Of a DNA stretch of 29,556 nucleotides, positions 1 to 10,975 are shown in pieces. Position 1 is the first letter of the stretch. Every line of letters starts with the position of its first letter. The stretch is from assembly GCA_964570405.1 (NCBI GenBank), contig CAZMXZ010000001.1, forward strand, positions 1-29,556. The letters run 5' to 3'. The translations under genes were made by a program, and so were the position numbers. Source of the DNA: an uncultured Candidatus Saccharibacteria bacterium (GTDB lineage Bacteria > Patescibacteriota > Minisyncoccia > Phycocordibacterales > XYD1-FULL-46-19). Below the pieces are notes generated by a model. The model saw nothing but the letters and a program-made list of their open reading frames with translations. It ran no database searches and was not told the DNA's origin.

Positions 1-1
1 G

Positions 2-721
2 GCTAAAAAAGAATTTGCCATCGCCAGCTTGCGTCTAGTTGTCTCGATTGCCAAACAATATGCTAACCGGAGTGCCGCCCTAACCCTTCTCGACCTGATC
101 CAAGAAGGGAACATTGGTTTGTTTAAAGCGGTCGAAAAGTTTGACTGGCGCAAGGGTTACAAATTTTCGACCTACGCCACCTGGTGGATCCGCCAGGCGG
201 TGACGCGAGCCTTGGCCGACCAATCGCGGACTATCCGCATCCCTGTCCACATGGTGGAAACAATTGCCAAATACAAACAGGTGGTGCGGCGCCTATCGCA
301 AGACTTGGGGCGCGAACCGCTCCCCAGTGAGATTGCGACCGAGATGGGACTAGAGGTAGAGAAGATCCACTTGATCGAAAAGATTGACCAAAGTACGACC
401 TCACTCGACAAACCAACCGATGATGATGATGAGAAGTCGACCTTGGGCGAATTTATTTCTGACGAAAAGATTCTCTCACCGGAGCAGGAGGTGTCACGCC
501 GGCTGCTACGGGATCAAATTGAGGAGATCCTAGACGACTTGTCACCAAAAGAACGCAAAATTTTAGAGATGCGGCACGGCCTAAAGGATGGCGTGATGCA
601 TACCCTGGAGGAAGTTGGTCGCGAATTTGGCGTCACCCGTGAGCGGATCCGTCAAATTGAGGCCAAAGCCCACGAAAAAATCCGCCAGCACGAAAAAGCC
701 CGCCGTCTCTTGGATTACTAA
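2..721 (+). CDS. rpoD: RNA polymerase primary sigma-70 factor, 3' part (5' end lies before the window)
   Basis: Region 2 [40 protein letters not shown]; region 3 [11 protein letters not shown]; region 4 [21 protein letters not shown]. The frame is open from base 2. Confidence 0.96.
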
Positions 722-748
722 CAATAATTAGTGTTATAATATCGATTA

Positions 749-1096
749 ATGGCGAAGGCGATTAATCGTTGGCTAACGGCTTGGCGGAAACCAGAATTTT
801 TTTTACGACTCGGCTTGGGTGCGGTCTACGCCTACTCCAGTTGGCATCTACTCCACGGCCACAAAAGTGATTGGGCAGAGATCCAAGGTTGGATTGAAGC
901 CGTTTTAGCCATCGCTCTTCTCATCCCGTTTTGGCCGCGACGGCTGGTCAAGTGGGGGAGTCTAGTGGCGGCGATTGAACTGGTGATAGTCTTTAAAGTT
1001 GTGGGCATTACGCCCGATTCCTTCCCGCTGGTGGGCGTGATTGCGGCTGCTCTGGCCCTGTTTACCATTTATGAGCGTCATCCTCGCGGCCTATGA
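749..1096 (+). CDS. DoxX-like small multi-pass membrane protein
   Basis: 115 aa with about 4 hydrophobic segments; FLRLGLG and GWIEAVLAIALL resemble DoxX family motifs. TGTTATAAT lies 8 nt upstream. Confidence 0.55.
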   Translation: MAKAINRWLTAWRKPEFFLRLGLGAVYAYSSWHLLHGHKSDWAEIQGWIEAVLAIALLIPFWPRRLVKWGSLVAAIELVIVFKVVGITPDSFPLVGVIAAALALFTIYERHPRGL

Positions 1097-2850
1097 TCGT
1101 TGGTCTTGGTTGGTACATTGTTAGTTTTTTGCTCGGCTTGAGCTCTGGCGTCTGGCCGGACTTGTTGCCGGTGATCTTGATCGTGGTGACCATGGCGCTG
1201 GCATCAGAACGCAAGCGGGCGATGATTTTGACTGTTACTTTTGCACTGACTTTTGTTTTGACGTCAATTTTTTTGGGTCTTATCGTCGGATTAGCGGCGG
1301 CCACGCTAACGGAGTGGGGGATAATGCTTGCCTTGGTTCGCCCACTAATTTATTTAGTTGTCGGCTTGGTAACTTATTGGCTGGCCTTGGGCGAGCTGGG
1401 TCTGCTCCCGCGGCCACTCCCACCACAACTGTTGTCACTGGCCCAATTTAATCGGGCTGCTACTTGGTGGTCAGCCGCCGGTCTTGGCCTAATGCTCGCT
1501 TTGCCGGGCATTATTAGTTTTGAACCAACCTTGCTCTTGCCCCTAACGGCTGCCCTCACGGCTAGTCGGTTGACCTTGGGCGCCTTAACCATGCTATTTT
1601 ACAGTCTGGGTCGCCTCTTGCCGCTCTTTATTTTGGTGGCGGCCGCTTGGTGGGGTAAAAATCTTTTAGCCCAGTTGGCCAACTACCGCGAGCGCTGGCA
1701 AAAGACAGCCGGCTGGTTTTTGGTTTTTTTGTCGGGCTTGATTGTGGTTAGTAGTCTGGTGGCCAGTACTAATTTGTCGTTGCCGGTGGGGGCGATTAGT
1801 CTAATTGCTCTATGGCTCTGGCCGTGGTGGCATAGTGTTTGGCAAAAACGGCAACCAGTGGGGACAGTTTTATTTTGTTCTCTGACATTATTTTTATTTG
1901 CGCTCTATGTTTTACCTCAAGAAACTAATTGGTGGGGCTGGCTTGAGAGTTTTTCGCCGAGCATGACCTACCAGGAGTCAGCGGCTGTTAGGCGAGGATC
2001 GGTTGTCAACTTTAGTTATGCGCCTGATCCAATTTTAGTTGGCATCCCAACAGTTTTAATTTTTTCTCCCGCCGATGGAGCTACCGCTGCCCCCCTACCG
2101 GCCAGTGATCTGGCGGCTGGTCCGAGTGGCCAAATGCAGGCGGTGGCTATCCGTGATGATTTGAGTGAATTTTCCCACTTTGTGCCAACGCCGGATGATC
2201 GGGGATTGTTTACCAGTCAGTTTGTTTTCCCCAGTCCGGGGCGCTACAAAATTTGGTCCGAAATTAAGACTGGTCAGACGAGCAAAATTTTTGGCTTCCA
2301 ACCCGTCGAGGTGATTGGCGGAGGAGTGGTGTCGGAACCAGGTAGTGACGAGGCCGGTCCGCAAACAGTTGGTCCGTGGCAAGTCAACTTGGCCAGTCCA
2401 GCCAAGTTGGTGTCTGGAGCCCCCCTGCCACTAACAATTGACTTAACCTCTGCCTCAGCCCAACCTAATCCCACGATCGATATTTATGTGGTGGCGGCCG
2501 ACTCAGGCTATTTAGCCCACCAAACAATCAATCCGAGTGATGGTCTGGCCTGGTGGCGTGGTTTAACGGCGGCCGCTTTTGACTTACCGCTCCCGGCAGT
2601 GGTCGATCAAACTGGCACGGCCAATAAATTTTTTATTACCCTGCCGCGGCCTGGTGACTACCGAGTCTTTGTTGATTTGCTGACCAGCAGTGGTCAGCCC
2701 AGTAAAAACAAAGCGGCCGCCTTTTGGCTCAAAGTGGAACCACCCGATCCCGTTGGCAGTCTGACGGGGAGTCAAATGATTTTGGCTCTAGTTATTATTT
2801 TAGCCGCCGTTTCTCTCTTTAGTCGGTTGATCCAAATTAATCAGCGATAG
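1093..2850 (+). CDS. CcdA/DsbD-beta-like membrane domain fused to two extracytoplasmic Ig-like (YtkA-like) domains with a C-terminal TM anchor
   Basis: N-terminal ~270 aa are multi-TM with LFYSLGRLLPL, typical of CcdA. Two repeats of the FPSPGRYKIW / LPRPGDYRVF type follow. ATGA overlap with the upstream stop. Confidence 0.55.
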   Translation: MIVGLGWYIVSFLLGLSSGVWPDLLPVILIVVTMALASERKRAMILTVTFALTFVLTSIFLGLIVGLAAATLTEWGIMLALVRPLIYLVVGLVTYWLALGELGLLPRPLPPQLLSLAQFNRAATWWSAAGLGLMLALPGIISFEPTLLLPLTAALTASRLTLGALTMLFYSLGRLLPLFILVAAAWWGKNLLAQLANYRERWQKTAGWFLVFLSGLIVVSSLVASTNLSLPVGAISLIALWLWPWWHSVWQKRQPVGTVLFCSLTLFLFALYVLPQETNWWGWLESFSPSMTYQESAAVRRGSVVNFSYAPDPILVGIPTVLIFSPADGATAAPLPASDLAAGPSGQMQAVAIRDDLSEFSHFVPTPDDRGLFTSQFVFPSPGRYKIWSEIKTGQTSKIFGFQPVEVIGGGVVSEPGSDEAGPQTVGPWQVNLASPAKLVSGAPLPLTIDLTSASAQPNPTIDIYVVAADSGYLAHQTINPSDGLAWWRGLTAAAFDLPLPAVVDQTGTANKFFITLPRPGDYRVFVDLLTSSGQPSKNKAAAFWLKVEPPDPVGSLTGSQMILALVIILAAVSLFSRLIQINQR

Positions 2851-3374
2851 AGTCCAATCAGTTTGGCCACGGTCACAATGCGGCCGGCGGTGGCCGCCAT
2901 CAGGTCATTAACTTTGGTCGTGGCGGGCAAATTGAGTGTAGTATCGAGAGCATAAAGTTTAAACCAGTAATGGTGCGAGCCAGAGGGCGGGCAAGGGCCG
3001 CCATAACCAGACTGGCCAAAACTGGTCTGGCCCGCCACTGCCCCCGTGGGGACAGAGTTGGCAGCAATCTCGGTGGTAGTGGGAGGAATGTTCCAGAGTG
3101 TCCAATGAGTCCAGGTGCCGGCTGGCGCATCGGGGTCATCAACAATTAGAACCAAACTTTTAACGCCACTTGGCACACCAGAGATGGTGAGTGGGGGATT
3201 AATATTTTGGCCGTCACAAGTGTACTCGGCCGGTATTTTTTCGCCATCAGTAAAAGCGGTGCTAGTTATTTTCATATTACTCTTGGAGTTATTGTTAGGG
3301 GGCGATTTTACAAAAAATATCGCACCCAAGATTATAATAATTATTAAGCCAACTAACCAATATAATTTTTTCAT
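2841..3374 (-). CDS. YbhB/YbcL family (PEBP / Raf-kinase-inhibitor-like) protein with N-terminal TM or signal segment
   Basis: Motifs YTCDG, LIVDDPDAP, WTHW, YGGPCPPSGSHHYWFKLYALD. Confidence 0.93.
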   Translation of the reverse strand: MKKLYWLVGLIIIIILGAIFFVKSPPNNNSKSNMKITSTAFTDGEKIPAEYTCDGQNINPPLTISGVPSGVKSLVLIVDDPDAPAGTWTHWTLWNIPPTTTEIAANSVPTGAVAGQTSFGQSGYGGPCPPSGSHHYWFKLYALDTTLNLPATTKVNDLMAATAGRIVTVAKLIGLYR

Positions 3375-3378
3375 ATGA

Positions 3379-3449
3379 TGGACCTAGCGAGAATCGGACT
3401 CGCGCCTCCACAATGCGAATGTGGCGTCGTACCACTAGACTATAGGCCC
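3379..3449 (-). tRNA. tRNA-Ala(CGC), 71 nt, CCA not encoded
   Basis: Acceptor GGGCCTA/TAGGTCC with the G3:U70 Ala determinant and A73; anticodon arm CCACA-TTCGCAT-TGTGG; T arm GCGAG-TCCGATT-CTCGC. Confidence 0.92.
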
Positions 3450-3452
3450 AAT

Positions 3453-3686
3453 TTATTCTTGTTTTGGCTGACGGTTAAAAAATTTAACTAAGTAATTGGT
3501 GCCAATGATCAAAACGATCGTCAAAACGATGGCATAAATAAATTTGGCGATTATTCCGGCCTGATCAGACGGGTAGAGGGAGTCAATCAAGGCCTTGATG
3601 GCGTCATTCCAAGCCAGGCCGACCACCAAACCAAAAGCCGCCGTTAAATAACCGAGTATCTTTTCTTTAACCTCTTGGCCGAGCAT
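3453..3686 (-). CDS. DUF5654-like two-TM small protein
   Basis: AAFGLVVGLAWNDAIK motif and two hydrophobic helices. ATG at 3686 lies 8 nt after TAAAAT. Confidence 0.75.
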   Translation of the reverse strand: MLGQEVKEKILGYLTAAFGLVVGLAWNDAIKALIDSLYPSDQAGIIAKFIYAIVLTIVLIIGTNYLVKFFNRQPKQE

Positions 3687-3724
3687 CAAAAATCATTTTA
3701 CTCATTTTTAGTAACTTGGCAAAT

Positions 3725-3752
3725 AAAAAACCACCCGTTTAGGAACGGGTGG
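3725..3752 (-). terminator. Intrinsic terminator of the 3753-4241 gene
   Basis: CCACCCGTT-4 nt-AACGGGTGG perfect 9-bp stem followed by T6 on the minus strand. Confidence 0.85.
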
Positions 3753-4241
3753 TCAACCGCGCTTCTTCAAAATTTCATAAAAGTATTTGTGCCAATTCGC
3801 CGTTTGGCCGTAGAACTCGGCTTCGCCGGCGACCAGGCAAAGGTCGGCTTCAACAGTTCGACCAATTTTCCGTTCCAGGACGACTCGCGTTTTTGCCGGA
3901 TAACGCTTGATCGTGGCGCAAACAGCATCTAAGTGCTCATAACGGGAGCCTAATCTAAGCGCCACCGTTGGCACGTCGTCTTCCAGCGAGATCGGCGATT
4001 CAATGATCGCCTCGCCGATTAACTCGTAATTGGTCAAGCCATACTGCCAAAGATCAATAATGGCCAGACGGAGTTTATTTTCAGTCAGTGGCTCCGGTAG
4101 CCAATCAGCGATCCGTCGGGCAACAGCCGAATGGATCCAGACCCAGACATCATCCAGATCAGTTGGCTCTCCTTGGCGTGGCAAGTAGGGACGGTTGATT
4201 GGCCGAGACCGGCGGTTTTTCCGTCTCCGATGGCGACCCAT
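3753..4241 (-). CDS. Hypothetical protein (162 aa, Arg-rich N-terminus)
   Basis: AAGGAG SD 5 nt before ATG, own extended -10 (TGGTAACTT), terminator directly after the stop. Confidence 0.75.
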   Translation of the reverse strand: MGRHRRRKNRRSRPINRPYLPRQGEPTDLDDVWVWIHSAVARRIADWLPEPLTENKLRLAIIDLWQYGLTNYELIGEAIIESPISLEDDVPTVALRLGSRYEHLDAVCATIKRYPAKTRVVLERKIGRTVEADLCLVAGEAEFYGQTANWHKYFYEILKKRG

Positions 4242-4301
4242 GGGTTCTCCTTTCAGACCAATTTCTAACTCTAAGTTACCACCTTTTGATTTTTTGGCAA
4301 T

Positions 4302-4471
4302 TTAAATACCCCACTTGTTGCCAAAAGAGATTTTAAGGTTTAAAAATACGATCAGTATAATTATGAAGAGCGGGGTCTTGGCATAACTATACCACCAAGG
4401 GAAAATGCGGATATAAGCCGTACTTTGTGAAAAAAAGTATGTAGATGGAGTGGAACACTCAGAGTAAAAAG
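4302..4471 (-). pseudogene. 5'-truncated, frameshifted fragment homologous to the 3' third of the membrane protein at 7937-8359
   Basis: Reads LFTLSVPLHLHTFF/SQSTAYIRIFPWWYSYAKTPLFIIILIVFLNLKIS versus LFTLSVPIHAYTFFSRSTEYVRFFPLWYSYAEAPVFIIILIVFLNIKIS. One base is missing in the A7 run at 4430-4436. Confidence 0.88.
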
Positions 4472-4498
4472 AAAAAGGCCGACCCCGAAGGATAGGCC
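4466..4498 (-). terminator. Intrinsic terminator of the 4529-5146 gene
   Basis: GGCC-TATCC-TTCG-GGGTC-GGCC hairpin followed by TTTTTCTTTTT. Confidence 0.7.
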
Positions 4499-4528
4499 CG
4501 TATTGTAAAGAAGCCAAGTCACGCTGGA

Positions 4529-5146
4529 CTATCCGTAGAAGGGGCATTCCGAGAGGCTTAGCCACTCATCGTACCCACTCAATAAAACCTGGCCAATCTT
4601 ATTGAGTTCCAACTCTGGATCTTCAAGACAGGCGACCTTGACGTATTGGAGGGCTTCGCCAGAACCACCAGCCTTAGCCCAGATCCCATCATATTCCCAC
4701 AAGGGACGAACAAATGATTCGATCAACACGTCAGAGTATTTGCCCTTAATCTTGCCTCCGACTTTGTAGCCCATCATCTCTGTCGCTTCGAGTATCTCAA
4801 CTGCACCAGTCTGATGGGCTTGAAGTACAGGCTGGAAGTCCTTGAGCAATTGAAGGCAGTACTCGTCGCTACTGGCAGCGCATTTTTGCAACAGTCCAAA
4901 GTGTTGCTCCCAGTCGAGCTGGTGCTTGGCAGGATCTTTAATGGGGCAGAACTCCTCGATATAATACCCCAGCACCCTGGGATCATTTTGCCCGGGCCAG
5001 ATAAGGCGTCGGTCCTGGCAACAATGATGGTTGGTGCTAGTAAAACTGGTTAGAAATACCGCCACTCCCATTGGGAATTGGCCGGGTGCGATTTTCTTGA
5101 GGATTGTCTCGACCATTTGTTGTCTCGACTCCCACTCGGTAGCCAT
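4529..5146 (-). CDS. Hypothetical protein (205 aa, HHCC motif, 7 Cys)
   Basis: Long ORF with AAGGAG SD, upstream TTTACA-17-TATAAA promoter and downstream terminator. Confidence 0.8.
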   Translation of the reverse strand: MATEWESRQQMVETILKKIAPGQFPMGVAVFLTSFTSTNHHCCQDRRLIWPGQNDPRVLGYYIEEFCPIKDPAKHQLDWEQHFGLLQKCAASSDEYCLQLLKDFQPVLQAHQTGAVEILEATEMMGYKVGGKIKGKYSDVLIESFVRPLWEYDGIWAKAGGSGEALQYVKVACLEDPELELNKIGQVLLSGYDEWLSLSECPFYG

Positions 5147-5188
5147 GATGCTTAATCTCCTTCTTTATGATCAAATTTTCAAACCTAG

Positions 5189-5227
5189 TTCTGGTTAATT
5201 TATAGCATTTCGGATTTCTTATGTAAA
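5189..5227 (-). promoter_or_regulatory. Sigma-70 promoter of the 4529-5146 gene
   Basis: TTTACA (5227-5222), 17 bp, TG-C-TATAAA (5204-5199), then AGAA at 5192-5189. Confidence 0.7.
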
Positions 5228-5242
5228 TAGTTTGACATATCG

Positions 5243-5274
5243 AAAAGAAAAGACTCCGGAGCAAATCCAGAGCC
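5243..5274 (-). terminator. Intrinsic terminator of the 5298-5882 gene
   Basis: GGCTCTGGA-TTTGC-TCCGGAGTC (9 bp with G:U pairs) followed by TTTTCTTTT. Confidence 0.8.
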
Positions 5275-5297
5275 AAAAAGGTTTTGACCGAAGAGTT

Positions 5298-5882
5298 TTA
5301 TGTCTCGTGGGTGCCAGCAAAATGCCAGTAACCGCACCACATACAGTCAATGGGCCGGAGATCAAATACTCGATCAACGGCATCGCCGTAGAGGCAGGGC
5401 ACCCGTTCGATACCTTTGGGGTCAAGCCAGATTGTACCAAAGCCAGCAATGGGATACTTCCTTTGGATGCCCGGATGGGCCAGAGCAAAACTCGATAGCT
5501 CGTGGTTAGTGCTGGGCCGCAGATGCTTCCGCTTAAACCTAGCGTAAACCTCTGCTGGTTCAACAAACTGACCAAAGTTGATGAGTTCAATTTTGCCTCC
5601 CGGTCGCTTGATCAATTCGCACTCTCGTGAACAAGTGGAAAGGTCAAGATATTTGTTGATTTTGGTAAAGTTTCCAGCCTCGATCAGATATTCGAGCGGA
5701 AGATGGTAGAGAAAATCAACCGAAAAAATGTTGTCTTTGGGCAGATCATAATTAACGACCTGCCTAGCAAACTTTTCAACCAATGGCAGGTCAGCGGTGG
5801 TGAAAGGACGGCAAAGGTCATTGGTATGACCACCCCACCGCCTCACTTCCGCCTCTAACCTAGTTAAGAGACTAGTACCCAT
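5298..5882 (-). CDS. Hypothetical protein with a possible C-type-lectin-fold C-terminus
   Basis: 194 aa; RPST-x2-EL-x2-FA-x2-HP-x2-QRKYPI and RVPCL...W...F pattern; AAGGAGG SD; own terminator. The fold call is recognition only. Confidence 0.75.
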   Translation of the reverse strand: MGTSLLTRLEAEVRRWGGHTNDLCRPFTTADLPLVEKFARQVVNYDLPKDNIFSVDFLYHLPLEYLIEAGNFTKINKYLDLSTCSRECELIKRPGGKIELINFGQFVEPAEVYARFKRKHLRPSTNHELSSFALAHPGIQRKYPIAGFGTIWLDPKGIERVPCLYGDAVDRVFDLRPIDCMWCGYWHFAGTHET

Positions 5883-5941
5883 GACTAAACTACCCTCCTT
5901 TAAAGATCTTGTGCTGGCTCAAGCTCTAGCACACTATGTCC

Positions 5942-5988
5942 AAAAAGAAAAGGCCTTACGGTATGAGTAGTGTACTCTTCCATGAGGC
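5942..5988 (-). terminator. Long interrupted hairpin terminator of the 5989-6264 gene
   Basis: GCCTCATGG..GAGTA-CAC-TACTC..CCGTAAGGC immediately after the TAA, followed by CTTTTCTTTTT. Confidence 0.65.
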
Positions 5989-6264
5989 TTAATAAATAAT
6001 TGCGGGGATCAAAACTTTCCAGACTGTAATGCTTGCCATTATGGCCGGCACCACCACTCCGAAAAATGCTATAAACTTTTTAAGTCCATGACTCTGTGAG
6101 AAAGCTTTAGTCCAAACCACAAAGACAAAGATATTGACACAAAGTTGTAGGCATCCTGCCAGTACGCTAGATCCCGAAAAAAAATTTGTGAAATTCGCAA
6201 TCAAGAAAAAGGACGGACCAATCAATCCTGAGATAGTCATCCATTTTGAGTTTTTATCTATCAA
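5989..6264 (-). CDS. Small three-TM hypothetical membrane protein
   Basis: 91 aa, mostly hydrophobic; promoter TTGACT-17-TATTCT at 6345-6317. The start codon (TTG 6264 or a downstream ATG) is uncertain. Confidence 0.7.
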   Translation of the reverse strand: MIDKNSKWMTISGLIGPSFFLIANFTNFFSGSSVLAGCLQLCVNIFVFVVWTKAFSQSHGLKKFIAFFGVVVPAIMASITVWKVLIPAIIY

Positions 6265-6388
6265 CCTGGCCTCTCTTTCAAGAAAATTAGAGTGGGCGAC
6301 AGAGTTTCTACTTTAGAGAATAACACCGTAGTTATAAAAAGTCAACCCTGGCTCCTTTTGGTACGGGATGTCGGAGCTTTTTGTAGGT

Positions 6389-6423
6389 AAAAAGAAAAAC
6401 CGCTCGTCAAGAACAACAAGCGG
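6389..6423 (-). terminator. Intrinsic terminator of the LysE gene
   Basis: CCGCTTGT...ACGAGCGG stem followed by TTTTTCTTTTT. Confidence 0.75.
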
Positions 6424-6459
6424 ACTCACCAGTCAAGAAGATTCCTGGTTCACCTGAAA

Positions 6460-7095
6460 TCACTTTCTGTAAAGAGCGAGCCTGATGCCAAGAGCGATGA
6501 GTATGGCGCCGGTCACTCGCTCAAACCAGACCGAGACTTGCTCAAAGATCCTCTTCACTCTCTCGACAGACAGAACAGTGGCCAGGAGTGAAAACCAAGC
6601 AACAGCGATGAGCATGATTTCCAAGCCATAGGCACAGCGCAAGACTAGAGAGCTATTAGGAGCAACCACTACACTGAACAGACTGACAAAGAACAGCGCG
6701 CACTTTGGGTTGAGCAGGTTAGTAAGAAGACCTGTTCGAAAAGCCCTAGCCGGAGTCATAGTTACAACACTCCTGCCTACTAATCCAACAGTTTTTGTTT
6801 CAGAAGTAGATCCTCTCTTCGAATGAAATGATCGTATACCAAGATAGACTAGATATAGCGCCCCAAGCCACTTGATAACATTGAAGAGAGCTATGGTCTT
6901 CGAGATGATATACGAAATGCCGAGAACTGAAGCTGCGACCCACCAGATAATCCCAACGGCAATACCAAGGGCTGTTGCGAGCCCAACTCGTTTTGAGTAG
7001 AGCAAGCTGTTACGAGTAACAATGAGAAAATCTGGTCCGGGACTTACAACAGCGAGAGTACCAACAACCGTCACAGCGAGAAAGGTGGTATTCAT
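6460..7095 (-). CDS. LysE/RhtB family amino-acid exporter
   Basis: VSPGPDFLIV, GLATALGI, GALYLVYLG, FRTGLLTNLLNPK, ERVTGAILIALGIRL. Confidence 0.95.
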   Translation of the reverse strand: MNTTFLAVTVVGTLAVVSPGPDFLIVTRNSLLYSKRVGLATALGIAVGIIWWVAASVLGISYIISKTIALFNVIKWLGALYLVYLGIRSFHSKRGSTSETKTVGLVGRSVVTMTPARAFRTGLLTNLLNPKCALFFVSLFSVVVAPNSSLVLRCAYGLEIMLIAVAWFSLLATVLSVERVKRIFEQVSVWFERVTGAILIALGIRLALYRK

Positions 7096-7149
7096 GCAAA
7101 ATCTCCTTGTAAAAATACTGAGTTCTAGTCAATTTATAGCACGTTTTAT

Positions 7150-7182
7150 AAAAAAGAAAAAGGGCGTCCCACTTAGGTACGC
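7150..7182 (-). terminator. Intrinsic terminator of the 7203-7418 gene
   Basis: GGCGTACC-TAAGT-GGGACGCC stem followed by CTTTTCTTTTTT. Confidence 0.75.
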
Positions 7183-7202
7183 CTATAAAACTTAGTCTGA
7201 AG

Positions 7203-7418
7203 TCAATATTCTTCTTCCTCGCTGAACCGGTCCTGACCGTGATCCCAAGTACCAAGGTCCATTCCTGAGGGTTCCTCTCCACGATCATCGGCCTGGCAGT
7301 AATTGCATGTTGCTAACCTGGCTTGATCAGGCGGTACTAGAGCCATCCCAAAAAAGTTATGACCACAGCCTCCACAGTATGGATGGATCCAGTCAGGAGG
7401 TGGTGCAGTTTCTGGCAT
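7203..7418 (-). CDS. Small acidic zinc-ribbon-like protein (2 x CxxC)
   Basis: 71 aa with CGGC and CNYC; GGAGG SD 9 nt upstream; terminator downstream. Confidence 0.65.
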   Translation of the reverse strand: MPETAPPPDWIHPYCGGCGHNFFGMALVPPDQARLATCNYCQADDRGEEPSGMDLGTWDHGQDRFSEEEEY

Positions 7419-7494
7419 TTTCTTTATCCTCCACTAATTGTTGATGAATCTGCCTTATTCCTAACACAGATAAGAAACATTGGTCAATACTCGA

Positions 7495-7531
7495 CTCCGC
7501 GGGCAGCCTGCCTGCCGATAGGCAGGGATTC
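7495..7531 (-). pseudogene. 3' half of an outer tRNA-Asn, interrupted by a 20-bp palindrome
   Basis: Minus strand reads GAATC-[20 nt]-CTGCCCGCGGAG. Removing the 20-mer gives GAAT CCTGC CCGCGGA G, which pairs with the 5' half at 7776-7829. Confidence 0.85.
7507..7526. repeat. 20-bp palindromic miniature repeat CCTGCCTGCCGATAGGCAGG
   Basis: 7-bp perfect arms CCTGCCT/AGGCAGG around 6 nt. It resembles, from memory, a short palindrome family common in CPR genomes. Confidence 0.75.
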
Positions 7532-7562
7532 TTCCCCTACGGGGGCAGGTATGTCCTCTGAG

Positions 7563-7634
7563 CTCCGGCGGCAGGATTCGAACCTGCGACCAATCGCTTA
7601 ACAGGCGACTGCGCTACCACTGCGCCACGCCGGA
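7563..7634 (-). tRNA. tRNA-Asn(GTT), intact inner copy, 72 nt, CCA not encoded
   Basis: TCCGGCG/CGCCGGA acceptor with G73; D stem GCGC; anticodon loop CTGTTAA; T arm GCAGG-TTCGAAT-CCTGC. Confidence 0.96.
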
Positions 7635-7775
7635 GCTCAAGTGACATACAAGGTTATTTAGTTTTCAACGCGGGATTCGATCCTTACAGGATCAGTATAC
7701 CTTTTGGATATTTTACTCGCTTCAACTCAAAAATATCTCAAGAAGGTTTTTCGGCACTCTAGGTATTCGCGCCTC

Positions 7776-7829
7776 AACCTGCGACCAATCGCTTAACAGG
7801 CGACTGCGCTACCACTGCGCCACCGCGGA
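7776..7829 (-). pseudogene. 5' 54 nt of an outer tRNA-Asn(GTT), ending in the T-loop
   Basis: 7776-7823 is identical to 7581-7628 (48 bp). Its acceptor 5' strand is TCCGCGG rather than TCCGGCG. Confidence 0.9.
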
Positions 7830-7853
7830 GCCGGGGCATCTAAAACAACCCAC

Positions 7854-7882
7854 ATCCTAACGCCAATTTTCCCAAAAAGCAA
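7854..7882 (-). promoter_or_regulatory. Probable promoter for the tRNA-Asn locus
   Basis: TTGCTT-17 bp-TAGGAT upstream of the outer tRNA 5' half. Confidence 0.5.
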
Positions 7883-7936
7883 AGCGACAGACATAGTCTG
7901 TTCGTCACAAGCGGCGTTTGAGATATAATATTAGTC

Positions 7937-8359
7937 ATGAAGATATACGACAATTTAAAAAAGCATCAGTTTTATTTCATCTACGCTGTCATAGCAGCCA
8001 TGACATTCGGCATATATCTACATGTTTCGGCGATCGTTTTTGGAAAAGATTTGTTATTACAGCGTTTTTTTACTCCGACTGCCGACATGTTTCTTGCCGT
8101 TCTCATTGCGTGGGGCAGTATTGGTCTTATTGCATATCGAAAGACCGTACATTTGCCTAACATCTTCATAAAAATTGTTTATTATTTTACCACAGTACTT
8201 TTTACCCTGAGCGTGCCTATACACGCATATACTTTTTTCTCGCGAAGCACCGAGTATGTCCGCTTTTTTCCTTTGTGGTATAGCTATGCAGAAGCCCCGG
8301 TCTTCATAATCATACTAATTGTATTTTTGAATATTAAGATATCTTCTCGCAGTGAGTAG
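7937..8359 (+). CDS. Four-TM hypothetical membrane protein
   Basis: 140 aa hydrophobic ORF. A conserved homologous fragment at 4302-4471 supports coding. TATAAT lies 7 nt upstream. Confidence 0.85.
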   Translation: MKIYDNLKKHQFYFIYAVIAAMTFGIYLHVSAIVFGKDLLLQRFFTPTADMFLAVLIAWGSIGLIAYRKTVHLPNIFIKIVYYFTTVLFTLSVPIHAYTFFSRSTEYVRFFPLWYSYAEAPVFIIILIVFLNIKISSRSE

Positions 8360-8389
8360 AGAGTCTGGTTATTTGTCGAGCCAGATTTT

Positions 8390-10975
8390 CTATAACCCCA
8401 CAAGCTGCTGCATTTTGTGGCGGGTCTTGTAGCCGACGTATCCCGATACCGGAGCAATATTGTATTTTGTTTGGAATGTTTTGACGGCTCCTTCGGTGAG
8501 ATTGCCGAAATAGCCGGAGATGATCGCTTCTTGGTAACTGCCTTCGTAGATAAGATACTGCTGCAAGTCTTCCACATCTTCTCCCTGATCACCCTTCTTG
8601 AGGTCGGTATCAAAGACAATCACATCGGCTGGAATATCAAGTTTGGTTTCAGAAAGCGATATGGTGTTTAGCTCCTTCTGCGTTGCGGCATCGACAATTC
8701 CGGTTTGTGGAAGCCGGTGCTTAGTTTGGAAACGCTTGAGTGCTGCCTCAGTGAGCGATCCGAAGTAGCCAGTTATGTATTTTTCAGGATATGAATCTTT
8801 GTCTGCTGCCAGGAGCTCTTGCAAATGTTCGATCTCGATATCCTTGTTGCCTTTTTGCCACGTTTCCACGAAATGAAGGACTGGGGTCGAAGAGGCTAGC
8901 GTGCCACTTTCGTTGAACTTCACTTGTCTTACTCCGGCAACTGGGGCAATTGTAATGTTCACAGCTCTCGACGAACCTCCGCCGGAGCTGCGGGCAAAGA
9001 CTGTGTAGTTGTGAGAAACTCCATTAATTACATTGGTATCAGTAAACGTCTCGCTGTTGCCTTCGTAAATAACCTGACTGTCTCGTTCGACGACCACGTC
9101 TTCGTTCACACCCGGATTTCCGTCATTGATCTCAAAAACTACTTCGTGGTCTGCTCCCGTTACGTCAACAATCGGAGTTTCTGATTCGTCCGTAACTACA
9201 GGTGCAGGGGGTGTTGTGGAAATATTGGAAGAACTGCCGGTGGTAGTAAATGTGTAGTCCTCAGAAAAAGTAACATTTCCGACTTCGTCTGTAGATTTTA
9301 CTCGATAATGATAGGTAGTTCCTGAATTGAGATTGTTCAAAGAAATCGAATGAGAAGTAACGAGTGTTTCAGTATTCGCACTGGAAGATCCATATACGGT
9401 AAGAGGGCCATACTCAACTTGCGACGTTGCTCCTTTATCTGTTGTCCAAGAAATGGCTACCCCCGTGTTTGTCACTGATCCAGAAGAGACAGATGTAATA
9501 TTTGCCGGCGGGACTATGGGGATCGAGTAAGTGAGCGTCGCGAATTCATCATTTGGAGAAACAGTCGCAACTGATGCACCAAGCGGTTTTGATTTCACCC
9601 GGAAGATATAACCGGTATTTGGTGTAAGTCCGGTAATGGTGACTGAGTGAGATGTCGTTAGTGTTGAATCAAGCGGCGTCAGTGATCCAAAGTTTTCACT
9701 GTTGCCATATTCCACTTCTGAATCCGATGGCAAATCGGTATTCCAAGCTATTGTGACTGTCGAAGTCGAAACTGATGCCGCTTCAATTCCAGAGATGAGA
9801 ACTGGGGGAGCTTGCGGAATTGTTTGAGGAGCCTGGGAGGTAATTATCTCGCCAACCGTACCAACGGTTTCCGTCGTAAAAGAGTGCGGGCATGATGTGG
9901 CGGAATTTCCGGCAATGTCGGTAGCGTGGATACAATAGTAATAGGTGGTTCCGGCAGTGAGGCCTGTAAGAATGGCACTATGCGCAAGAAGTGCACTGAG
10001 CGACAGTGTCGCATGAGAGCCATAACTTTGGGTCGTGCCATATTCAAGGGTTGAGACAGCAAGCTCATTGGTGTCCCAGGCAAGCGTAACGTCTGTGATG
10101 CCAAGCGATGCGGTGCCGATTCCAGAGATGATAGGCGGTATAGTATCGGCAGGAGTTTGGACTTGGGCTTGAACGTTAATCGGCGCAGGAGATGAGATCG
10201 ACTCAGTCATAAGTGTCTCATCCGAAGTGATCGTCTCGTTGCCGAGCTCATCGCTCGTGATAATTCGGTAATGATAGAGAGTATTTGGAGTGAGGCCACT
10301 CAGTGCAACAGCGTGAGTTAACGCAAGAGTGGTATTAAGATTTGTCGATTCTCCATAGCCGGCAGTTGTTCCATACTCGATGCGGGCGTTACCGACCTCG
10401 CTTGTGGTGAAATTGATCGTGGCACCCGTCGTTGTGATCGAAGCAACAGTAATAAGGCTTACATCAGGCGGTGTTGTATCAACGATCACTGTTTGCGAAG
10501 CCGTGGTGAATGTATGGTCACATGAATTTGTCACGTTATTGGCAAGATCATGGGTGTGGATGCAGTAATAATATGTTGTACCGGGAATAAGACCGGTCAA
10601 AATTGCTGTGTGAGCTAGGAGTGCTGTCGCGGCGATGGTCGGGTTTGATCCATAGCTCTGTGTGGTTCCATATTCAAAGGTTGAGATGGCCAGTTCGTCT
10701 GTCGTCCAAACTAGTGTCGCATCATGTGTGGCAAGCGAAAGACTTGCCACACCAGAAATCACCGGACCAGTTGTGTCAGCGGGAGAGGTAACTATTTGCA
10801 CCACCGGCTCGGTTACGGCAGGAGGAGCAGGTTCAACATGAGGAGCGGGCGGGGCTGGCGGGGCTGGAGGTGTTTCAACTGGTGGCGGAGTGACTCCACC
10901 AAGCTGGGCGAAGACCGGAAGAGTGTTAAGCAGAAGCAATCCGATAATCACCAGAGAGGAAAAGAACTTTTTCAT
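8390..10975 (-). CDS. Secreted protein with 5 FN3-like repeats, an Ig-like domain and 2 C-terminal peptidoglycan-binding domains
   Basis: Signal peptide ending VFA; Pro-rich linker; five repeats W/F-x-T...EYG...H...L-x2-L-x-(P/A/S)-x-T-x-Y; two C-terminal LQ..L...GYFG-x-LT-x2-A-x3-FQ units. Confidence 0.9.
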   Translation of the reverse strand: MKKFFSSLVIIGLLLLNTLPVFAQLGGVTPPPVETPPAPPAPPAPHVEPAPPAVTEPVVQIVTSPADTTGPVISGVASLSLATHDATLVWTTDELAISTFEYGTTQSYGSNPTIAATALLAHTAILTGLIPGTTYYYCIHTHDLANNVTNSCDHTFTTASQTVIVDTTPPDVSLITVASITTTGATINFTTSEVGNARIEYGTTAGYGESTNLNTTLALTHAVALSGLTPNTLYHYRIITSDELGNETITSDETLMTESISSPAPINVQAQVQTPADTIPPIISGIGTASLGITDVTLAWDTNELAVSTLEYGTTQSYGSHATLSLSALLAHSAILTGLTAGTTYYYCIHATDIAGNSATSCPHSFTTETVGTVGEIITSQAPQTIPQAPPVLISGIEAASVSTSTVTIAWNTDLPSDSEVEYGNSENFGSLTPLDSTLTTSHSVTITGLTPNTGYIFRVKSKPLGASVATVSPNDEFATLTYSIPIVPPANITSVSSGSVTNTGVAISWTTDKGATSQVEYGPLTVYGSSSANTETLVTSHSISLNNLNSGTTYHYRVKSTDEVGNVTFSEDYTFTTTGSSSNISTTPPAPVVTDESETPIVDVTGADHEVVFEINDGNPGVNEDVVVERDSQVIYEGNSETFTDTNVINGVSHNYTVFARSSGGGSSRAVNITIAPVAGVRQVKFNESGTLASSTPVLHFVETWQKGNKDIEIEHLQELLAADKDSYPEKYITGYFGSLTEAALKRFQTKHRLPQTGIVDAATQKELNTISLSETKLDIPADVIVFDTDLKKGDQGEDVEDLQQYLIYEGSYQEAIISGYFGNLTEGAVKTFQTKYNIAPVSGYVGYKTRHKMQQLVGL

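Follow-up and report, generated by a model that had tools for sequence, protein, structure and literature searches.

A truncated membrane-protein gene copy joined to a terminator tail in an uncultured Candidatus Saccharibacteria genome, probably through a short homology

Results

Gene content of the locus

The stretch of 29,556 nucleotides analyzed here (the window) belongs to a metagenome-assembled genome of 81 contigs and 517 kb that is 91% complete. The window is chromosomal and carries genes for a sigma-70 factor, MsrA, glycosyltransferases, VanY, and others, as well as envelope genes. Between the genes for tRNA-Asn (7562-7634, minus strand) and tRNA-Ala (3377-3450, minus strand) lies an array of co-oriented single genes (7466-3725), in which each intergenic region contains a hairpin with a T-tail and then a TGnTA(T/A)AAT-like element. 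A 21-nt promoter module is common to two of the array units (19/21 identical positions), and five of the hairpins end in T-C-T tails, four of which were recovered by the terminator scan and one (5942-5951) by eye. The composition shows no break across the array, with a GC content of 0.43-0.50 like that of the surroundings. Profile searches gave no tyrosine recombinase (PF00589) in the window and a sole match in the assembly (C63:310-780), and serine recombinases (PF00239) had no match in the assembly. The 22-nt 3' end of tRNA-Asn was found once with up to three mismatches allowed, revealing no att-like repeat, and the Rfam search of the window returned only the two tRNAs and a tRNA-Asn fragment.

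Within this array, a truncated gene copy is located directly downstream of ORF 4529-5146 and on the same strand (Table 1). The promoter-like element and Shine-Dalgarno sequence (4242-4300) of the next gene, ORF 3753-4241, begin right after its stop codon. Neither of the two flanking ORFs had a homologue in Pfam, PHROGs, or the ESM Atlas, and for both of them a word-based search of 5.8 billion proteins returned the query alone.

Table 1 Features at and around the truncated gene copy, in window coordinates
Feature	Coordinates	Strand	Description	Basis
Downstream ORFan	3753-4241	-	162 aa	Pfam, PHROG, protein search, ESM Atlas
Pseudogene remnant	4302-4471	-	Codons 88-140 and stop codon of a gene paralogous to that of the 140-aa, four-helix membrane protein	
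T-run	4430-4436	-	1-nt deletion relative to both intact genes, giving a frameshift	Alignments, translation
Octamer CTTTTTAC	4464-4471	-	Putative microhomology at the joint	Common to gene and tail motif
T5-C-T5 tract	4466-4476	-	Terminator U-tract after the hairpin, followed by AC	Sequence, terminator scan
Hairpin	4476-4499	-	Intrinsic terminator of ORF 4529-5146, UUCG loop	Folding, terminator scan
Upstream ORFan	4529-5146	-	205 aa; its terminator abuts the remnant	Pfam, PHROG, protein search, ESM Atlas
Second array terminator	6387-6423	-	Same 13-mer (T5CT5AC) at its end; not followed by a gene remnant	Terminator scan, folding
Intact paralogue P0001	7937-8359	+	140 aa; inverted, 3.7 kb from the remnant	Alignments, tblastn

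A decayed second copy of a membrane-protein gene

The remnant corresponds to the final 53 codons plus the stop codon (4302-4304) of a decayed second copy of the 7937-8359 gene. At the DNA level it is 77% identical to the intact gene, and its identity to a metagenomic orthologue (on stretch L004) is 82%. Inspection of the sequence alone had suggested that the remnant aligns with its intact homologue from position 8198, and this proved to be correct: 17 of 20 positions agree between the 20-mer running down the minus strand from 4471 and the one that starts at 8198, and in MAFFT alignments the homology to the intact gene extends from 4471 down to about 4319. The two loci form inverted repeats with an arm of 118 nt at 77% identity (I1) and another of 41 nt at 76% (I3). 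By blastn, the remnant matches the L004 orthologue over 154 nt (4322-4473) at 81.8% identity with an E value of 6.5e-35, and by tblastn against the whole assembly the intact protein matches the remnant over residues 98-137 with an E value of 1.2e-13. On the 3' side, the aligned homology stops at the stop codon and is restricted to coding sequence.

Several lesions separate this copy from a working gene. It has neither promoter nor start codon, codons 1-87 are missing, and its frame is shifted by the 1-nt deletion in or beside the T-run at 4430-4436, a homopolymer in which a sequencing error is possible. When an X is placed at that deletion, the translation provides family residues 88-140 and retains the conserved blocks LFTLSVP...TFF.SQST.YIR.FP.WYSYA...FIIILIVFLN. 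Residues that are invariant in the three close homologues have been lost; for example, E119 is replaced by K, and AY is replaced by LH within the HAYTFF block. The region 4302-4471 thus combines homology to a functional gene with disabling lesions, as expected for a pseudogene. The break lies in the middle of predicted helix 3 (residues 76-102) and does not coincide with a domain border, which excludes the stump as a functional module. According to blastn, the remnant is no nearer to the intact copy in the same genome than to the L004 gene of another organism, and its STAYI and FPWW residues resemble the C terminus of a further homologue, P0004. On these comparisons, the remnant is an old paralogue or xenologue.

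The intact gene product (P0001) and its L004 counterpart (P0003) share even the promoter (7916-7936 versus L004 9980-10000) and are therefore orthologues. They belong to a sparse family of membrane proteins of about 140 aa, with 95 cluster representatives at E ≤ 1e-3 among 1.84 billion, and P0003 and P0004, which occur in different gene contexts, are the only two close relatives of P0001 in 5.8 billion proteins. There was no Pfam match, even across 32 members. The AlphaFold model of P0001 is a confident helical bundle (pLDDT 94.5); its nearest AlphaFold DB clusters are uncharacterised or were auto-named "DoxX family" (TM 0.87), and a Foldseek comparison of the model with the PDB gave nothing at E ≤ 0.001. 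The family is undescribed. Residues G25, H29, S92, and H96 are invariant, and the paired His pattern on two helices suggests a metal or haem ligand. Neither the protein nor a 1.6-kb DNA stretch matched in 60 related genomes, a flanking DsbD-like gene had no match in 40 same-family genomes, and scans of metagenome and genome collections using a family alignment and a DNA pattern gave no match. The truncated gene had been described as a resident gene; because the family was not found in the 60 related genomes and has only two close relatives among 5.8 billion proteins, the family itself appears to be accessory. In L004, the orthologue is situated beside a block (1-9900) with genes for a large serine recombinase, a ResIII/SNF2 helicase, an N6/N4 DNA methyltransferase, and an HTH protein; this block is probably an integrated mobile or defence element. 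The intact gene in the window contains a terminator-like hairpin and T-run (8211-8240, plus strand) just after its CTTTTTAC octamer, which is probably incidental.

Past selection on the lost copy was assessed by Nei-Gojobori counts on 47 codons (88-135, with the frameshift codon left out), which include about 32 synonymous sites. The dN/dS ratio was 0.09 against the intact copy (dS 1.44) and 0.21 against the L004 gene (dS 0.65). For a fragment that had been non-coding since its duplication, the ratio is expected to drift towards about 0.5 or more. Read from these codon comparisons, the values show that the second copy was a working gene through most of its divergence; ratios of 0.09-0.21 at dS values of 0.65-1.44 argue for long protein-level constraint and for a late, comparatively recent truncation.

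The junction with the terminator of ORF 4529-5146

The terminator hairpin of ORF 4529-5146 (4499-4476) begins 30 bases past the end of the ORF at 4529 and has a folding energy of -13.5 kcal/mol, with a z score of -3.1 versus shuffled sequences. It has no homology to the membrane-protein gene (20% in-register identity at 4476-4499), and this alignment check found none extending from the remnant into the hairpin. Upstream of the C at 4471, in-register identity across 90 nt is at chance level (17-33%), and it rises to 70-82% downstream of this C. The C is that of the T5-C-T5 tail, and the claim that homology stops there was borne out. The L004 gene additionally matches at the TT dinucleotide just before the C, which places the breakpoint within 4471-4473. 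The octamer at the joint is identical at 8198-8205 in the intact gene, where it encodes Leu88-Phe89-Thr90, and the L004 gene carries CTCTTTAC at the same site. Judging from these two homologues, the ancestral gene had either CTTTTTAC or CTCTTTAC at the break site.

The tail motif across the genome

Three copies of the 13-mer T5CT5AC are present in the genome (4464-4476, 6387-6399, and C7:1197), each of them after a hairpin. With the present joint left out, two of the five other hairpin terminators that end exactly in T5CT5 continue with AC, according to a by-eye reading. A crude genome-wide terminator scan identified 226 sites, among which T4-6-N-T4-6 tails had C, A, or G as the central base at 19, 14, and 13 sites, respectively. 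The 19 sites of the C class are distributed over 13 contigs and include housekeeping genes; such tails follow, for example, a thymidylate kinase gene (C16, from the scan) and a homoserine-dehydrogenase-like gene (C13:1452, from a plain motif list and not the scan). The hairpins ahead of the T-C-T tails show no sequence relationship to each other. The T-C-T tail is a style of terminator used throughout the genome.

A second array of co-oriented small genes, on the minus strand, occupies 3.6 kb of contig C50 (1-3642), from a partial tRNA at the contig end to a YchF-like GTPase gene. Four of its terminators end in T4-C-T5-6, with tails at 2387, 1808, 892, and 176, and its intergenic regions also consist of a hairpin with a T-tail and then a promoter-like element. 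An intergenic module of about 63 nt (tail, promoter, and leader) recurs there in three copies with 80-86% identity, and no module is common to C50 and the array in the window (C1).

The chance alternative for the junction motif was evaluated by fusing a hairpin and T5 to the gene at every possible position. A random break yields any T5-C-T4-6 tail at 3 of 423 positions and the exact 13-mer at 1 of 423, corresponding to a probability of 0.2-0.7%. Because the 13-letter tail recurs after two other hairpins, the octamer was probably present in both parents. Most likely, to judge by these matches, both parents shared 6-10 letters and the joint formed through this short match. The sequence-only reading had proposed CTTTTT(AC) as either a target or a microhomology. 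The microhomology part is plausible in light of the other two terminators and the calculated break frequencies. The target part found no support, given that there is one junction, that T-C-T tails also follow housekeeping genes, that the window has no recombinase, and that tRNA-Asn has no att-like repeat. The short match is a mechanism and not a target site.

Discussion

Origin of the truncated copy

We consider it probable, on the evidence of the alignments and the tail motif, that the second copy was truncated through a short homology, most simply by a deletion in cis at the octamer CTTTTTAC. In the ancestral state, a full and working second membrane-protein gene would have followed an upstream terminator with the tail T5-C-T5-AC. 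One event of illegitimate recombination would then have joined this tail to the octamer in codons 88-90, with loss of the promoter and the first 87 codons, leaving one copy of the shared letters. In its simplest form, the event would have removed a few hundred bases flanked by two short direct repeats of the same strand, by replication slippage or by RecA-independent short-homology recombination. The stump would have decayed afterwards, acquiring the 1-nt frameshift and losing conserved residues, and would now be an inert spacer that separates the terminator of ORF 4529-5146 from the promoter region of ORF 3753-4241. That the terminator carried T5CT5AC before the event is an inference from just two other terminators, and the pre-event state (an intact gene at the locus) and the deletion in cis are likewise inferred.

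The missing part of the gene bears directly on how the joint arose. When the 5' 261 nt (87 aa) of the intact and L004 genes were used to search the 517-kb assembly by blastn (word size 7) and tblastn, the intact copy was the only match; the promoter and codons 1-87 of the second copy were lost and not displaced, as far as an assembly of 91% completeness covers. Had the gene simply been interrupted by an insertion, its 5' two-thirds would be expected beyond the far end of the inserted DNA. Because that portion is absent from the assembly, the event was not a plain insertion and involved loss of sequence. The earlier suggestion of a fossil insertion junction must therefore be revised: a deletion at least is required, and a single deletion explains everything. 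A self-comparison of the genome found no other gene stumps beside terminators.

The junction is an ordinary kind of scar. Like the spontaneous deletions between short direct repeats in bacteria, it probably retains one copy of a short repeat at the joint (8 or possibly 10 nt in this case), the DNA in between has disappeared, and what is left in this small, deletion-prone genome is a truncated pseudogene. It differs in that the repeat is a terminator U-tract motif and in the way the parents are known: the gene-side repeat is documented by a paralogue (CTTTTTAC at 8198-8205) and an orthologue (CTCTTTAC in L004), whereas the terminator-side repeat is deduced from look-alike terminators only. Albertini et al. 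reportedly dealt with such short-direct-repeat deletions in their classic 1982 study of lacI. The remnant offers a clean, readable case of gene death in reduced genomes, in which a recently functional paralogue was cut in the middle of a helix, probably at an 8-letter match with the neighbouring terminator tail.

Against a deletion in cis stands the observation that both flanking genes are ORFans in a variable, tRNA-bounded stretch, which would also fit a replacement. Here, one or more self-contained promoter-gene-terminator units would have entered downstream of tRNA-Asn, the distal end recombining via the short match in the tail, and the 5' part of the gene together with the upstream DNA would have been lost in the same or a later event. 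This explanation is in keeping with the co-oriented single-gene units between tRNA-Asn and tRNA-Ala, each with its own promoter-like element and terminator, with the 19/21-nt promoter module that two of these units have in common, with ORFans on both sides of the remnant, and with five T-C-T tails within 3.7 kb plus four in the C50 array, of about 20 in 517 kb. Next to the L004 orthologue, too, lies a mobile-looking block that carries a serine recombinase, and recombination at composite terminator/promoter motifs is documented for T4-type phages (PMC2839356, PMC4122927). However, replacement takes more events than deletion, and no 5' half of the gene is present at any other boundary; the window has no recombinase and the assembly a single tyrosine recombinase, the 3' end of tRNA-Asn is unrepeated, the GC content is unremarkable, and the T-C-T tails are not specific to the units. 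We regard replacement as rather unlikely, and as less likely than a microhomology deletion. A dedicated site-specific cassette system that targets CTTTTT(AC), much as integrons recombine attC with attI, could account for the recurrence of T4-6-C-T4-6 tails at the ends of five units in a row, two of which have the identical 13-mer. It is very improbable nonetheless: no integrase lies nearby, there is one junction only, and the units carry their own promoters, while the hairpins are unrelated GC-rich stems with T-tracts after stop codons, as in ordinary intrinsic terminators, and the same tails follow the thymidylate kinase and homoserine-dehydrogenase-like genes elsewhere.

In a blunt, homology-independent break, the terminator would have ended in T5 and the T5-C-T5-AC string would have arisen by chance from the CTTTTTAC of the gene. 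The gene is T-rich, but the scarcity of suitable breakpoints (1/423 for the exact 13-mer and 3/423 for any T-C-T tail) and the independent presence of the exact 13-mer at two other terminators make it quite improbable. A fragmentary inverted duplication at an inversion breakpoint, according to a staggered-break model, would have copied the 3' third and never a whole second gene, in agreement with the remnant and the intact gene being inverted repeats that bracket a 3.7-kb segment. Neutral evolution is expected in that case, yet dN/dS is 0.09-0.21 with dS up to 1.4; in addition, homology is confined to the coding sequence and ends at the stop codon, and the remnant resembles a gene from another organism at least as closely as it does the intact copy. 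This candidate, which we regard as very improbable, was rejected on the dN/dS values. Lastly, two places or strains could have been misjoined at a T-rich stretch during assembly. The genome is metagenome-assembled in 81 contigs, and overlaps of contig ends at 90-97% identity hint at strain mixtures; still, the shared stretch of 8-13 nt is far below assembler k-mer sizes and the rest of the gene is on no second contig, making such a chimera the least credible explanation of all.

Relation to cassette arrays and known mobile systems

The junction had been put forward as the most direct support for a model in which the array genes are mobile cassettes. The cassette idea is compatible with the junction, which neither requires nor demonstrates cassettes: no insertion is shown, and the joint does not tell cassettes from simple decay. 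The locus is a caution for the cassette hypothesis, for which this junction cannot serve as the most direct support.

In layout, the array resembles the promoter-early stem-loop (PeSL) cassettes of T4-type phages, whose ORFan genes are shuffled by recombination between composite motifs of terminator and promoter (Arbiol et al. 2010, PMC2839356; Comeau et al. 2014, PMC4122927); such recombination is a known source of indels and replacements. The composite arrangement of a stem-loop and a sigma-70-like promoter between small genes is found both in the 7466-3725 array and in C50. The likeness includes arrays of small, mostly ORFan genes, a terminator hairpin closely followed by a sigma-70-like promoter, and locally repeated regulatory modules: C1 has the 21-nt module (19/21) in two units in addition to the T-C-T tails, and C50 has the three modules of about 63 nt (80-86% identity). 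In contrast to PeSL cassettes, these arrays reside in the cellular chromosome of a tiny uncultured (CPR-like) bacterium and not in a phage, so that they are not members by host type; sequence conservation between the C1 modules is weak, and the junction lies inside a gene and involves the T-tail only, not two full modules. A cellular counterpart of PeSL is conceivable, in which T5-C-T5 tails and adjoining promoter modules are preferred recombination points that exchange single-gene units in tRNA-bounded arrays and the stump at 4302-4471 is an exchange that overshot into the neighbouring gene; we think this unlikely. If population data showed the presence and absence of neighbouring units with ends in the tails, the locus would be a marker for terminator/promoter-mediated gene shuffling.

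Integron cassettes, mobilized by IntI at attC sites, are likewise co-oriented single-gene units with hairpin-forming sequences between them. Unlike integrons, the array has no IntI, with no PF00589 tyrosine recombinase adjacent or elsewhere in the window; its units have no conserved attC core or inverse core and are not promoterless, each carrying its own promoter, and their hairpins and T-tracts behave as intrinsic terminators.

tRNA-linked genomic islands resemble the locus in that a variable, ORFan-rich stretch extends from just downstream of the 3' end of tRNA-Asn to tRNA-Ala. They differ in having an integrase and a direct repeat of the tRNA 3' end, neither of which was found in the window; the sole tRNA-Asn repeat here is a 5' fragment upstream of the gene. 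This 56-nt copy of the 5' part (7776-7831, minus strand) is 96% identical to its source, is located 195 nt upstream of the full gene, and scores 26.8 bits with the Rfam tRNA model, just under the 29-bit threshold. A 22-nt inverted repeat (7549-7570 and 7628-7649, 86% identity) lengthens the acceptor stem of tRNA-Asn by about 13 nt on each side. Another 22-nt inverted repeat (5319-5340 and 7400-7421, 91% identity) has one arm, 7400-7421, in the ribosome-binding and start region of a 71-aa Cys-rich ORF (7203-7418, minus strand) and the other, 5319-5340, antisense within the 3' end of ORF 5298-5882 (minus strand).
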